Shown: positions 38,853 through 43,295, counted from the first letter of the stretch. The stretch: DNA of 64,000 bases from Bacteroidetes bacterium 37-13 (GCA_001897535.1 MKTC01000010.1:116440-180439), one strand, 5' to 3'. Numbers and translations: made by a program. The notes: generated by a model from the sequence alone, not told the origin.

Positions 38853-39149
38853 ATGAAAACGCACTTTATTTTGTTTGTTCTTATGCTTTTAAGTAATGTA
38901 TTATTAGCGCAGAGTAAATATAAATATGCTTCAACCTGGTCGCAGGGGCAAGATAGTGTAAAATACAATTGGGTAAAAATAGAAGGGAAAGCAGACGAGC
39001 AGAAGATGGCTAAATTAGAGATTCAGCAAGTTGATAAATCACAATTTTCGGCAGGTATTCAAGGGTTAATATTCAAGTTTGAACACAAAGGCTGGGAACT
39101 ATTTTATGCAAAAAAGGAAATGCTTTATTTCAGAAAACTTAAAAAGTAA
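38853..39149 (+). CDS. Hypothetical small secreted protein (C-terminus loosely DUF4177-like)
   Basis: Signal peptide ending LLA-Q; GWELF...YFRK end. Confidence 0.55.
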   Translation: MKTHFILFVLMLLSNVLLAQSKYKYASTWSQGQDSVKYNWVKIEGKADEQKMAKLEIQQVDKSQFSAGIQGLIFKFEHKGWELFYAKKEMLYFRKLKK

Positions 39150-39185: not shown

Positions 39186-41624
39186 ATGGAAACATCAACA
39201 GAAAAACTTGCAGTTGCCGTAACTCCGGCAAAAGCTCGTAAGGTAAAAACCGTAGCGGTTTTGGGTTCCGGTGTAATGGGCAGCCGAATAGCGCTCCATT
39301 GTGCAAACATCGGACTTAAAGTAATTTTATTAGACATTGTACCTTTCGATTTAAAAGAAGAAGATGCAAAAAAACCTGCTCTTCGCAACAAATTAGTAAA
39401 CGACCATTTGGCATTTGCAATAAAGAGCAATCCAAGTCCTGTTTACGATAAAGCACTCGCTGCACACATCAAAACCGGAAACTTTGACGACAACATGAGT
39501 TGGATAAAAGAAGCCGATTGGATTATTGAAGTGGTAATGGAGCGCTTAGACATTAAACAACAAGTTTTTGAAAAAGCAGAAAAATTCCGCAGACCCGGAA
39601 CGCTTATCACATCAAACACTTCAGGTATTCCAATTCATTTAATGGCTGAAGGCAGAAGCGATGATTTTAAAGCACATTTCTGCGGCACACACTTTTTTAA
39701 CCCACCGCGCTACTTGCGTTTGTTAGAAATAATTCCAACTCAATATACGCATCCCGAAGTAGTAGATTTCTTAATGAACTTTGGCGATTTGTTTTTAGGC
39801 AAGCAAACCGTTTTATGTAAAGATACACCTGCATTTATTGCCAATCGCGTTGGCGTTTTCAGCATTGGTGCTGTTATTAAACTAATGCAGGAAATGGATT
39901 TAACTATTGATGAAGTGGATGCACTTACAGGAACTTTAATCGGCAAGCCAAAATCTGCCACTTTCCGCACCACAGATGTGGTTGGTTTAGACACCATGAT
40001 TAAAGTAATGAAAGGTGCTTACGACAACCTTCCAAACGATGAATATCGCGATGTTTTCCAAGTTCCAACTTGGATTTCGCAAATGGATACCAACAAATGG
40101 CATGGCGATAAAACAGGTCAAGGATTTTTCAAGAAAACTAAAGATGCCAGCGGCAAAAAATCGTTTGAAACTTTAGACTGGAAAACACTTGAATACAAAC
40201 CTAAAGGCAAACCCAAATCTACTACTATCGAAATTGGTAAAAACATTGAAGATTTACCAAAACGCTTAAAAGCAGTAGCGGCTTCAACCGATAAACATGG
40301 CGACTTTTTGCGCAAACTTTCTTTCTACGTAAACAGCTACGTGAGCTTGCGTATTCCTGAAATTTCTGATGAACTTTATCGCATTGACGATGCTATGCGT
40401 GCAGGTTTCGGTTGGGAACTCGGACCTTTTGAACAATGGGATATTGTTGGCGTAAAAGCTACGGTAGAAAATATGAAAGCTGCCGGAGTGAAACTTGGCG
40501 CTTGGGTTGATGAATTTTTAGCTGCCGGAAACACTACTTTCTACAAAGTAGAAAATGGCAAACGTCTTTTCTACGATATTCCTTCTAAATCATACAAAAC
40601 TATTCCGGGTCGCGAATCGTTCATTATCCTTTCAGATATTCAATCTTCTACCAAACCAATTTGGAAAAACTCAGGAGCAAGAATTGACGATTTGGGAGAT
40701 GGCGTGTTAAACGTTTCATGGAATACTAAAATGAACTCTTTAGGTGGTGAAGTTTTAGAAGCCATAAACAAAGGAATTGACTTGGCTGAAACTCAAGGTT
40801 GGAAAGGCGTTGTGTTAGGTCATAGTGGTACAAACTTTAGTGCAGGAGCAAACCTTGCCATGATATTTATGATGGCAGTAGAGCAGGATTATGATGAATT
40901 GGATTTTGCTATTCAAGCGTTCCAAAAAACAACTATGCGCTTGCGCTATTCTTCTATACCAACAGTTGCAGCTATTAAAGGCTTAACACTTGGCGGTGGT
41001 TGCGAAATTACCATGCACAGCGATAGCGCAGTGGCACAGGCCGAAACTTACATTGGTTTAGTTGAAGTGGGCGTTGGTTTAATTCCTGGCGGTGGCGGCA
41101 CAAAAGAAATGGCTTTGCGTGCCAGCGATTCGTTCTATGCAGGCGATACTCAAATTACACAATTAGCAGAGCGCTTTACAGCAATTGCAACTGCAAAAGT
41201 AGCCACTTCAGCTGTTGAAGGTTTCAATATCGGTGTGATGGATCGCAAGAAAGACCAAATTGTAATGAATGCAGATCGCCACATTAAAGAAGCTAAAGAA
41301 AAAGTATTAGAGCTATACAGCAATGGTTACGTTCAACCGGTTCAGCGCGAAGACATTACTGTTTTAGGCAGAACAGGATTAGCCGCATTATATTCAGGTG
41401 CAGCAGCTTTCCGCGTAGGAAAATACGCCAGCGAGCACGATGAAAAAATTGCGCGTAAAATAGCTTATGTGCTTTGTGGAGGCGATCTTTCAGCCGAATC
41501 AAAAGTGAGCGAGCAATATCTTCTCGATTTAGAAAGAGAAGCATTCTTGCAACTTTGCGGTGAAAAGAAAACATTGGAACGTATTCAATCAATTTTAACC
41601 AGTGGTAAGCCGTTGAGAAACTAA
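39186..41624 (+). CDS. 3-hydroxyacyl-CoA dehydrogenase / enoyl-CoA hydratase (FadN-type)
   Basis: GSGVMG, SNTSG, HFFNPPRY, PAFIANR, FSAGANL, LGGGCE, GLVEVGVGLIPGGGG, ends GKPLRN. Confidence 0.94.
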   Translation: METSTEKLAVAVTPAKARKVKTVAVLGSGVMGSRIALHCANIGLKVILLDIVPFDLKEEDAKKPALRNKLVNDHLAFAIKSNPSPVYDKALAAHIKTGNFDDNMSWIKEADWIIEVVMERLDIKQQVFEKAEKFRRPGTLITSNTSGIPIHLMAEGRSDDFKAHFCGTHFFNPPRYLRLLEIIPTQYTHPEVVDFLMNFGDLFLGKQTVLCKDTPAFIANRVGVFSIGAVIKLMQEMDLTIDEVDALTGTLIGKPKSATFRTTDVVGLDTMIKVMKGAYDNLPNDEYRDVFQVPTWISQMDTNKWHGDKTGQGFFKKTKDASGKKSFETLDWKTLEYKPKGKPKSTTIEIGKNIEDLPKRLKAVAASTDKHGDFLRKLSFYVNSYVSLRIPEISDELYRIDDAMRAGFGWELGPFEQWDIVGVKATVENMKAAGVKLGAWVDEFLAAGNTTFYKVENGKRLFYDIPSKSYKTIPGRESFIILSDIQSSTKPIWKNSGARIDDLGDGVLNVSWNTKMNSLGGEVLEAINKGIDLAETQGWKGVVLGHSGTNFSAGANLAMIFMMAVEQDYDELDFAIQAFQKTTMRLRYSSIPTVAAIKGLTLGGGCEITMHSDSAVAQAETYIGLVEVGVGLIPGGGGTKEMALRASDSFYAGDTQITQLAERFTAIATAKVATSAVEGFNIGVMDRKKDQIVMNADRHIKEAKEKVLELYSNGYVQPVQREDITVLGRTGLAALYSGAAAFRVGKYASEHDEKIARKIAYVLCGGDLSAESKVSEQYLLDLEREAFLQLCGEKKTLERIQSILTSGKPLRN

Positions 41625-41629
41625 AATGC

Positions 41630-41657
41630 TTTGAGCAATTAGCTATGAGTTTTGAGC
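41630..41657 (+). repeat. Heptamer tandem array upstream of the four-helix-bundle gene
   Basis: TTTGAGC AATTAGC TATGAGT TTTGAGC. Confidence 0.75.
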
Positions 41658-41660
41658 TCT

Positions 41661-42020
41661 ATGAGAGACTATAAAAAATTAGAGGTTTGGAATATGGCAG
41701 TAGATTTATCAGTTGAAGTTTATCAAGCAACATCAGTTTTCCCAAAATCTGAATTGTATGGTATTACTTCTCAAATTCAACGTGCCGTAATTTCAATTCC
41801 ATCAAATATCTCAGAAGGAGTAGGCAGAGAAACAGAAAAACAGTTTAGCCAGTATTTGCATTTTGCTTATGGCTTTGCTTGTGAATTAGAAACTCAGCTC
41901 ATTATTGCAAATCGCTTGGAGCACTTAAGTGATGATTCTTTCAATTCTATTACTGAAAAGCTAATTCATCTTCAAAAGAAAATTTTTAATCTGAATAAAT
42001 TATTAAATAAACAGTCATAG
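41661..42020 (+). CDS. Four helix bundle protein (23S rRNA intervening-sequence protein family)
   Basis: MRDYKKLEVW, FPKSELYGITSQIQRAVISIPSNISEG, GFACELETQL. ATG 41661. Confidence 0.93.
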   Translation: MRDYKKLEVWNMAVDLSVEVYQATSVFPKSELYGITSQIQRAVISIPSNISEGVGRETEKQFSQYLHFAYGFACELETQLIIANRLEHLSDDSFNSITEKLIHLQKKIFNLNKLLNKQS

Positions 42021-42054
42021 CTCACGGCTCAAAGCCCATAGCCTATGGCACAAA
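42013..42054 (-). repeat. Inverted heptamer tandem array downstream of the four-helix-bundle gene
   Basis: AGTCATA GCTCACG GCTCAAA GCCCATA GCCTATG GCACAAA are reverse complements of the upstream T(T/A)TGAGC units. Confidence 0.75.
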
Positions 42055-42063
42055 AACTAAAAT

Positions 42064-43239
42064 ATGTTACAAGAAGCTTATATCGTAGCGGGTTCAAGAA
42101 CCGCCATTGGCAAGGCTAAAAAAGGAGGATTTCGTTTTACCACTCCTGTAGATTTAGCATACTATGCCATCACAGATTTATTATCTAAAGTACCACAATT
42201 CGACCCAAAAAGAGTTGATGATGTGATTGTAGGAAACGCAGTTCCTGAAGCCGAACAAGGCTTGCAAATGGGGCGTTGGGTTGCTCTGCGTTCTTTACCA
42301 ATGGAAGTTTCGGGCGTAACCGTAAACCGCTATTGCGGCTCAGGTGTAGAAACTATTGCTATGGCAACTGCAAAAATTCGTTCAGGAATGGCTGACGTTA
42401 TTATTGCAGGTGGAACCGAAAGCATGAGCTTGGTGCCAACAGTTGGTTACAAAACTGTACCTAACTTTACCATTGCAAACGAACACCCCGATTACTACAT
42501 CGGTATGGGTTTAACTGCCGAAAACATTGCAGATAAATATGGAATTACTCGTGAACAAAGCGATGAATTTTCATTCAATTCTCACCAGAAAGCTTTAGCC
42601 GCATTGGCTGCCGGAAAATTTAAACAATTTATTACTCCAGTAGAAGTAGAAGAAGTTTACTACGAAGGTGGAAAAAAGAAAAGCAGAAAGTACATTGTAG
42701 ATACAGATGAAGGTCCGCGCAAAGACACCACAATGGAAGGTTTAGCAAAATTAAAACCAGTATTTAAAGCCGGAGGCCAAGTAACTGCGGGCAACTCATC
42801 ACAAACCTCTGATGCCGCAGCATTTGTGCTTGTAGTGAGCGAAAAAGTGGTAAAAGAATTAAACCTTACGCCTATCGCAAGATTGGTAACTTCGGTAACT
42901 GCCGGAGTAGATCCGCGCTACATGGGAATGGGACCTGCGGTTGCAATTCCAAAAGCATTAGAGCGTGCAGGCTTAAACATGGGCGACCTTGGTTTAATGG
43001 AATTGAACGAAGCATTTGCAGCTCAATCTTTAGGTGTAATTAAAGAAGCACAATTAGACACAAGCATCATCAACGTGAACGGTGGCGCAGTTGCATTAGG
43101 TCATCCACTCGGAGCATCGGGCACTTACTTGTTTATGAAACTTATTGAAGAACAAAAAGCCAGAAACGTAAAATACGGAATGGTTACAGCTTGTATCGGT
43201 GGCGGACAAGGTATTGCCGGCATTTTTGAAAATCTATAA
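42064..43239 (+). CDS. fadA: Acetyl-CoA C-acyltransferase (3-ketoacyl-CoA thiolase)
   Basis: VNRYCGSG, GGTESMS, TAGNSSQTSD, ELNEAFA, GHPLGASG, TACIGGGQG. Confidence 0.95.
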   Translation: MLQEAYIVAGSRTAIGKAKKGGFRFTTPVDLAYYAITDLLSKVPQFDPKRVDDVIVGNAVPEAEQGLQMGRWVALRSLPMEVSGVTVNRYCGSGVETIAMATAKIRSGMADVIIAGGTESMSLVPTVGYKTVPNFTIANEHPDYYIGMGLTAENIADKYGITREQSDEFSFNSHQKALAALAAGKFKQFITPVEVEEVYYEGGKKKSRKYIVDTDEGPRKDTTMEGLAKLKPVFKAGGQVTAGNSSQTSDAAAFVLVVSEKVVKELNLTPIARLVTSVTAGVDPRYMGMGPAVAIPKALERAGLNMGDLGLMELNEAFAAQSLGVIKEAQLDTSIINVNGGAVALGHPLGASGTYLFMKLIEEQKARNVKYGMVTACIGGGQGIAGIFENL

Positions 43240-43260: not shown

Positions 43261-43295
43261 AAAGCCTGCTGTTGCAATGTAACAGCAGGCTTTTT
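43261..43295 (+). terminator. Intrinsic, probably bidirectional terminator
   Basis: AAAGCCTGCTGTTGC-AAT-GTAACAGCAGGCTTTTT. Confidence 0.9.

Follow-up and report, generated by a model that had tools for sequence, protein, structure and literature searches.

What is a small gene of the S23p/IVP family, whose relatives are encoded in intervening sequences of 23S rRNA, doing between two genes of a protein-coding operon? In the 64,000-nucleotide stretch of Bacteroidetes bacterium 37-13 analysed here as a whole (MKTC01000010.1:116440-180439; hereafter, the window), a preliminary description had placed such a gene between a fadN-like gene and a thiolase gene, bracketed by inverted arrays of 7-nt units. 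The sequence itself and the identity of the flanks at lag 7 (0.51 upstream and 0.59 downstream) bear this arrangement out. The gene and its arrays form a cassette of about 430 nt, and cassettes of the same build were found around related genes well beyond this operon. On balance, we lean towards regarding the window cassette as an accessory, promoterless element of the 23S rRNA intervening sequence (IVS) type, whose arrays would be recognised by the pentamer that it encodes and whose arms would zip into a hairpin looping out the open reading frame (ORF).

An IVP gene enclosed by inverted heptamer arrays

The ORF at 41661-42020 (plus strand; 119 amino acids, MRDYKKLEVWNMAVDL...KQS, then TAG) matched PF05635 with an E value of 6.7e-32 (110.3 bits against a cut-off of 33.8) and TIGR02436 with an E value of 1.3e-30 (105.8 bits against a cut-off of 24). 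Its start, ATG at 41661 (MRDYKKLEVW...), was set from the family alignment because it restores the nearly invariant family residues L7 and W10; by the same alignment, TTG 41652 and ATG 41685 were rejected as starts. The nearest solved structure was that of Xanthomonas XCC0516 (PDB 2GSC, E 3.8e-20). An AlphaFold2 (AF2) monomer model, with 91 relatives in the alignment, reached a predicted local distance difference test (pLDDT) score of 96.2 and consisted of four helices (residues 8-24, 29-54, 59-85 and 91-117). Foldseek comparison of this model gave a template modelling (TM) score of 0.93 and a root-mean-square deviation (rmsd) of 1.0 Å with 2GSC, a TM score of 0.82 with BT_0352 (2RLD), and a TM score of 0.80 with an rmsd of about 2 Å with Avd (4DWL), a protein of diversity-generating retroelements (DGRs). 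A homopentameric toroid is known for the Xanthomonas homologue, according to a passage in PMC4990558 that cites Lin et al. 2006.

The 5' array (41630-41666, plus strand) is G-rich and C-poor on the sense strand and runs through four units of the form xxTGAGx, namely TTTGAGC (41630-36), AATTAGC (41637-43), TATGAGT (41644-50) and TTTGAGC (41651-57), followed by 'tc' and then by a fifth, phase-shifted unit, TATGAGA, within which the IVP start codon lies. The 3' array (42020-42061, plus strand) is C-rich and G-poor on the sense strand and is made up of the reverse complement of these units: GCTCACG (42020-26), GCTCAAA (42027-33), GCCCATA (42034-40), GCCTATG (42041-47) and GCACAAA (42048-54), with a weak sixth unit, AACTAAA (42055-61). 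It begins within the IVP stop codon and finishes 2 nt 5' of the thiolase ATG. Except for lag 14, all lags other than 7 gave identities of only 0.11-0.35, and the 7-nt period, with shuffle p values of 0.00045 upstream and <5e-5 downstream, is not due to chance. Tandem Repeats Finder reported neither array because the units are too diverged, and lag autocorrelation was used for array detection in its place.

Between the arms at 41630-41657 and 42027-42054, each 28 nt long, complementarity is 79%, and the predicted arm-arm RNA duplex (about 24 pairs with small loops between them; -28.4 kcal/mol, z = -5.2) was matched by at most 1 of 1000 shuffles. An imperfect stem of about 28 bp enclosing the ORF, as drawn in the preliminary description, is possible. 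The minimum free energy (MFE) fold of the full spacer contains the arm pairs, with an overall z of only -1.9, and two alternative arm registers pair about equally (26 nt at 81% and 24 nt at 71%).

In Coxiella burnetii, the IVS in helix 45 of 23S rRNA is 428 nt long, RNase III cuts have been mapped within its 28-bp stem, and three tandem GACAGAT heptamers precede its S23p start; ORF-bearing 23S rRNA IVSs also occur in Leptospira, Xanthomonas and Brucella (PMC4990558). The window cassette shares with the Coxiella IVS the S23p/PF05635 protein, the overall length (about 430 nt against 428 nt), a terminal stem of about 28 bp, tandem heptamers directly 5' of the ORF start, and an ORF that occupies the loop. 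This comparison upholds the earlier view of a discrete cassette in an operon spacer, built like an ORF-bearing 23S rRNA IVS. The two differ in location, as the window cassette sits between two protein-coding genes, in the spacer of an mRNA operon, and not in a 23S rRNA helix (25 or 45). They also differ in pairing, with arms that are 79% complementary in the window, whereas the Coxiella stem contains one mismatch and one bulge. RNase III cutting has been demonstrated in Coxiella and is hypothetical for the window cassette. By contrast with the Coxiella ORF, which is decaying, that of the window looks intact and conserved. An Rfam scan of the 1.7 kb at 41000-42700 returned no family for the arms or the cassette at E <= 10 beyond chance-level matches, and neither an rRNA match nor a Gut-1 motif in this interval.

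Inverted arrays among relatives of the cassette

With the window IVP as query, we collected 134 cassettes from 400 genomes of the order, assigning the relatives' start codons by a motif rule; the cassettes surveyed here and below are not phylogenetically independent. Lag 7 scored best in 78 upstream and 98 downstream flanks, compared with 5 of 134 in the ORF control, and the median inverted-arm score was 16.5, falling to 8.75 when arms from different cassettes were combined. The arms began a median of 5 nt past the upstream stop and ended 11 nt before the downstream start (5 and 9 nt in the window), the median filled spacer measured 479 nt (439 nt in the window), and four was the commonest unit count per arm. 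Both neighbours were on the strand of the cassette in 106 of 119 cases. The survey was extended across phyla with 79 loci of a species-wide genome collection, picked by protein similarity alone. A 7/8-nt periodic flank was present at 74 of these 79 loci, and inverted arms as well at 55. The set spans at least 14 phyla, including Acidobacteriota, Bacillota, Chloroflexota, Thermodesulfobacteriota and several lineages of the candidate phyla radiation (CPR). Collectively, these surveys identify the inverted-array build as a property of the IVP gene family in many phyla.

The genome holds two IVP genes, on contigs C10 and C9, which are 19% identical to each other. The second, also of 119 amino acids, lies between the membrane-fusion gene and the pump gene of a resistance-nodulation-division (RND) system (G000 C9:5502-6050; L002 1413-1961). 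A check of the flanks of this only other IVP gene, which the preliminary description had proposed, revealed inverted 7-nt arrays there too, A-rich and T-rich and unlike the window units in sequence. The 5' array of the paralogue is A-rich (AAAACTA / AAAGTGA), and its 3' side carries an A-rich direct array followed by a T-rich inverted array, so that a local hairpin is possible on the 3' side alone. We also observed a 14-nt direct repeat, AAATTAAAAATTAA, with copies 460 nt apart across the paralogue gene.

We then compared the operon itself, searching 67 genomes of the same family by thiolase and extracting their fad loci. An IVP gene was present at the fadN-thiolase junction in 15 loci from 14 genomes, and many relatives had a spacer of 28-60 nt with no gene; the comparison of junctions suggested in the preliminary description therefore yields both empty and differently filled sites. 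Other IVP genes in the fad cluster lay between the thiolase gene and the next gene (12 loci), after that next gene (6 loci) or before fadN (1 locus), and at all four junctions they were always on the operon strand. All 33 of the 33 analysed fad-cluster cassettes were flanked by inverted 7-nt (occasionally 8-nt) arrays, with unit types that varied (AGTAT, GCGAT, CAAGA, TAGAC and CAAGT; TGAGC in the window cassette).

Within the genus, the congener G066 carries at the same junction an IVP gene whose product is 46% identical to the window IVP, with CAAGA units. The approximately unbiased (AU) test rejected a common clade of these two cassettes (p 0.0013), and we rejected vertical descent at the fadN-thiolase junction on this result for the genus and on p 0.016 for the family cassettes taken as one clade. 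A second congener, G062 (L004), retains a relic of 107 nt in which a CCAAG hairpin but no gene is left, and a third, G061, has a 157-nt spacer without an IVP gene. The nearest relatives of the window IVP, at 47-53% identity, belong to another family of the same order, where they occupy the same junction and also have xxTGAGx units; the best relative among the 400 genomes of the order reached 53%, and the closest named protein relatives are from Bacteroidota. The flanking genes are about 80% identical to those of congeners up to the stop and start codons, and the exchange was therefore confined to the spacer; import with foreign flanks through homologous recombination was rejected because this identity extends to the junction edges. 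The window cassette is an accessory element, gained, swapped or lost among close relatives.

Other contents were observed at the same junction. The spacers of L012 (G039) and L018 (G020) hold hairpins of about 96 nt composed of AGTAT/ATACT heptamers, with no ORF, and that of L009 (G014) holds a 3'-arm-like array alone, 5' of the thiolase start. In several other genera (L008, L013, L023-L025, L030 and L032), the spacer contains an ORF of about 70 amino acids with a lipoprotein-like signal (MKNF..LLL..A..SC), which is not an IVP gene. Small inserts of different types can occupy the fadN-thiolase junction. Two different IVP cassettes, about 700 nt apart and one of them at the fadN-thiolase junction, were present in L045 (G148). 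Several junctions of one operon were occupied simultaneously in this locus and likewise in L076, L081, L082, L087 and L088. In G056, the fadN-IVP-thiolase region occurs twice, on two contigs (L019 and L086), with identical IVP proteins and arms, owing either to segmental duplication or to duplication in the assembly.

In the window, the gene upstream of the cassette (39186-41624, plus strand; stop TAA at 41622-41624) encodes a fadN-like bifunctional 3-hydroxyacyl-CoA dehydrogenase/enoyl-CoA hydratase of 812 amino acids, supported by Pfam 3HCDH_N, 3HCDH and ECH_1 and by FadB-type models of NCBIfam. The downstream gene (42064-43239, plus strand) encodes an acetyl-CoA C-acyltransferase (thiolase) of 391 amino acids (Thiolase_N, Thiolase_C; TIGR01930), and a strong terminator-like hairpin of 15 pairs at 43261-43293, to which no strand was assigned, closes the fadN-IVP-thiolase unit. 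Both of these neighbours are genes of fatty-acid oxidation. The cassette fills the entire fadN-thiolase spacer and, judging from the sequence, would be transcribed with the operon. No terminator-like site was found within it, nor any ORF besides the IVP gene. A promoter within the cassette was considered and rejected: the Bacteroidetes-type TAnnTTTG was not found there, and sigma-70-like matches numbered 13 against a shuffled mean of 19.1. Directly 5' of fadN, a 98-amino-acid ORF (38853-39149) had no Pfam or NCBIfam match.

Proposed recognition by the encoded protein, and rival explanations

When heptamer type was mapped on the IVP tree, the label changed 5 times, which is the minimum (shuffled mean 16.6), and the IVP protein clades contain cassettes from different junctions; gene and arms therefore travel and diverge together. 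Clustering was only moderate (13 changes versus 19.4) for a coarse 'TGAG' label on a 206-protein tree, because this label also catches TTGAGTA-type units. Four positions of each heptamer are conserved within the arm and nearly always pair, whereas the other 2-3 vary, with 36-56% of cells mismatched; the mismatches between arms are spaced in a periodic manner (p 5e-10). In 144 of 160 cassettes, the sense strand of the 5' arm was rich in G and poor in C, and G:C pairs outnumbered C:G pairs by 1120 to 340. This polarity of the 5' arm held whatever the heptamer sequence or phylum. The 3' arm, C-rich and G-poor, resembles a Rho-binding (rut) tract unless it is paired.

The cassette consists of a single S23p/IVP gene of Avd-like type between two inverted arrays, each with about four to five diverged heptamers, and we propose that these arrays act as cis-sites of the encoded pentameric protein, each unit presenting a conserved core of 4-5 nt followed by 2-3 loosely paired bases. 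It is plausible that the heptamers are the binding site of the IVP protein. Zipped together, the two arms would form an imperfect hairpin in which unpaired bases recur periodically, and a loose spot every seven bases would suit an Avd-like pentamer gripping flipped-out bases between its protomers. By looping out the ORF, the predicted hairpin would leave no more than about 14 nt, measured across its base, between the stop codon of fadN and the start codon of the thiolase gene, and this looping may limit polar damage to the operon.

The mechanistic precedent is Avd, a pentameric barrel that binds an RNA stem-loop beside its own gene, with flipped-out bases held between protomers (bioRxiv 10.1101/2023.10.23.563531; 8UB7/8UBB/8UBE). 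Avd has the same four-helix-bundle fold as the window IVP (4DWL, TM 0.80), but the two are only 6-7% identical in the structural alignment. Unlike in DGRs, neither a reverse transcriptase nor a template repeat or variable repeat adjoins the window IVP; the genome has a single RVT_1 match, and this lies on contig C8, a long way from the IVP genes on C10 and C9. TRAP offers a mechanistic analogy only, as a ring-shaped oligomer in which each protomer reads one short repeat made of a conserved core and a variable spacer. It differs from IVP in its unrelated fold, its 11 subunits, its triplet cores and its restriction to single-stranded RNA, and it has no cassette or inverted partner array.

Several observations weigh against recognition by the encoded pentamer. 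The link between clade and motif is also expected from physical linkage and common descent, and recognition is therefore not proven by it. The commonest unit count is four, not five. Across the family, the arm duplexes are often weak (median -15.6 kcal/mol, with the weakest quarter above -9), and the pairing measures are inflated, as the arm register taken was the best-scoring one. In addition, the same heptamer types occur in the genome as solo arrays without a gene, suggesting that the arrays may have a life of their own.

A different use of the same hairpin, put forward by analogy in the preliminary description, is an mRNA-level IVS, in which the arms would form a double-stranded RNA stem, RNase III would cut it, an IVP RNA of about 400 nt would be released, and the fadN and thiolase messages would be separated. 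The cassette is built like the RNase III-processed Coxiella IVS, which has 428 nt, a stem of 28 bp and heptamers 5' of its ORF (PMC4990558), the whole window ORF lies in the loop, the window duplex of -28.4 kcal/mol is strong enough to form, and an rnc (RNase III) gene is present in the genome. Tests for a conserved helix nevertheless gave a different picture. G·U mismatches on the sense strand were not in excess over A·C mismatches (171 versus 206), matching the expectation from composition, and compensatory changes were rare among close orthologues (60-98% protein identity), which displayed 23 compensatory doubles versus 54 other doubles and 384 single changes. Several registers were on a par in their pairing, and the score fell only slightly when the units were reordered (observed 19.6 versus a permuted mean of 16.5; window p 0.08), although this test is biased towards the observed order. 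The AT-rich arms of many family members are too weak for closing a 350-nt loop, and cutting would uncouple the thiolase gene from its sole evident source of transcription, leaving a 5' end 9 nt before its ATG. On these grounds, an mRNA-level IVS appears unlikely. We rejected a unique stem register on the weak unit-permutation result and the similar pairing of several registers, and selection on a sense-strand RNA helix on the negative G·U versus A·C and compensatory-change tests. RNase III cutting of the hairpin as such, which we consider doubtful, is compatible with recognition by the encoded protein.

In our reading, the conserved object appears to be a mirror-oriented array of clade-specific cores and not a particular stem; this would suit recognition by the encoded oligomer better than mere cleavage by RNase III. 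Binding of the heptamers by the protein would also agree better with the data, because heptamer type tracks the clade and the arms have about four units each.

The cassette could also be a mobile element at the DNA level, with arrays that would serve as terminal repeats, either as double-stranded multi-site arrays or as single-stranded hairpins or cruciforms, recognised by IVP or by a host recombinase or nuclease and driving insertion, replacement or gene conversion; RNA pairing would then be a by-product. In favour of such an element, mismatches show a strand-symmetric spectrum, the motif points inward at both ends as it does in transposons, and different cassettes occupy the same junction within one genus, with boundaries that are sharp at the stop and start codons. 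Gene-less hairpin relics (L012, L018 and L004) and similar solo arrays across the genome, one of them with an exact 14-nt match to the 3' arm, point in the same direction. Yet the cassette contains no transposase, integrase or nuclease, and no target-site duplication is a feature of the family, the mean longest flanking repeat being 4.65 nt versus 4.75 nt in controls (104 cassettes). The genome lacks near-identical copies, and identity reaches only 53% for the nearest relative among 400 genomes of the order, so that any movement must be rare. Strand polarity (144/160) and neighbour co-orientation (106/119) suggest constraints imposed by the transcript. Taken together, we consider a DNA-level element quite unlikely.

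Comparison with known mobile elements revealed both likenesses and differences. The window cassette resembles an integron cassette in being a promoterless single gene, co-oriented with an outside promoter and associated with an imperfect inverted repeat that contains unpaired bases. By contrast, attC is a single 3' site recombined by an integrase at attI, whereas the window cassette has an array on each side and no integrase or platform, and the sites at which IVP cassettes are inserted are ordinary operon junctions. Unlike transposons and miniature inverted-repeat transposable elements (MITEs), the IVP cassette shows no target duplication of constant length, no near-identical copies and no transposase.

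One repeat in the window was considered as a target-site duplication and rejected. The perfect 10-nt direct repeat AAACTAAAAT has one copy that overlaps the fadN stop codon (41618-41627, plus strand) and another immediately 5' of the thiolase ATG (42054-42063, plus strand); the copies are 436 nt apart and bracket the cassette. It is the sole flanking repeat of at least 8 nt among 104 cassettes, and AACTAAAAT, part of its upstream copy, is also found 3' of fadN in the IVP-less congener L005. Because of these two observations, we tentatively attribute AAACTAAAAT to chance or local microhomology, although it may also be a scar of local recombination. Replacement via repeats at junctions that already hold arrays or relics is a possibility.

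Outside the window, gene-less composite arrays with CCAAGA-type and TGAGC-type units were observed at G000 C10:20948-21022, C19:112396-112445, C19:113570-113607 and C31:142338-142430. One composite solo array shares the exact 14 nt GCTCACGGCTCAAA with the 3' arm of the window cassette. The three solo arrays located between co-directional genes are all C-rich on the sense strand of these genes and therefore resemble 3' arms that were retained. No IVP gene with CCAAGA arms is present in the genome, although the congener G066 has one.

The least successful explanation, that the IVP gene is a resident with ordinary repeat-rich leaders whose arrays arose by slippage, like short tandemly repeated repetitive (STRR) or TAACTGA sequences, and whose symmetry is functionless, can draw on solo arrays without IVP (about 25-30 excess lag-7 arrays in the genome versus comparable non-codon lags), on their frequent position directly 5' of start codons, as for TAACTGA repeats (PMC4679880), and on the differing unit number among Coxiella strains (PMC4990558), but it is very improbable, given that both arms of a cassette share a motif unlike that of other cassettes in the same operon or genome, that real arm pairs score twice as high as cross-cassette pairs, that the symmetry recurs around the IVP family in at least 14 phyla, and that slippage cannot keep opposite-orientation arrays 360 nt apart alike.

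Heptamer repeats and the wider IVP family

Intergenic heptamer repeats have been described independently of IVP genes, as TAACTGA repeats of Beggiatoaceae, Cyanobacteria and Bacteroidetes (PMC4679880) and as heptamer repeats of Nostoc (bioRxiv 10.1101/2022.06.06.494920); their function is not known, and the binding protein postulated for them has yet to be identified. The text of PMC4679880 contains no link between TAACTGA repeats and four-helix-bundle genes. Like the window arrays, these repeats are tandem 7-nt units in 2-6 copies that lie in spacers and often end a few bases from a start codon. They differ in that they have been described as solo direct arrays, whereas the window has an inverted pair that encloses a gene and a unit that is specific to its clade.

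A broader model, which we regard as less likely than not, may also be considered. PF05635 pentamers would be sequence-specific readers of heptamer arrays, and gene and arrays would together constitute a minimal, self-recognising cassette that colonises transcribed spacers in many phyla. The ORF-bearing IVSs of 23S rRNA would then be copies that landed in rRNA. The solo heptamer repeats that have long lacked an explanation, namely STRR, TAACTGA and, in this genome, the solo GAGC/CCAAGA arrays, would be relics or trans-targets of PF05635 proteins.

To our knowledge, no function has been assigned to the S23p/IVP family since the first descriptions of rRNA intervening sequences in the early 1990s, and tandem heptamer repeats of bacterial spacers have lacked a known partner as well. 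In the literature searched, we found no paper in which IVP genes of mRNA operons are described as flanked by inverted heptamer arrays, and the genome papers in it list IVP genes merely as annotation lines. Four helix bundle genes have sometimes been taken for phage genes (PMC5524665, Table 5).

In summary, the IVS design is not special to rRNA, as a cassette of this design resides in ordinary operons and is gained, replaced and lost there. For annotation, this accounts for hundreds of 'four helix bundle protein' entries that are wedged between operon genes. The locus and its relatives join the S23p/IVP family to the heptamer repeats of spacers in a testable form: with a protein of 119 amino acids and two short arrays of a clade-specific 7-nt unit, recognition can readily be tested. 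If the broader model is true, the IVSs of 23S rRNA would represent one landing site of a more widespread element.

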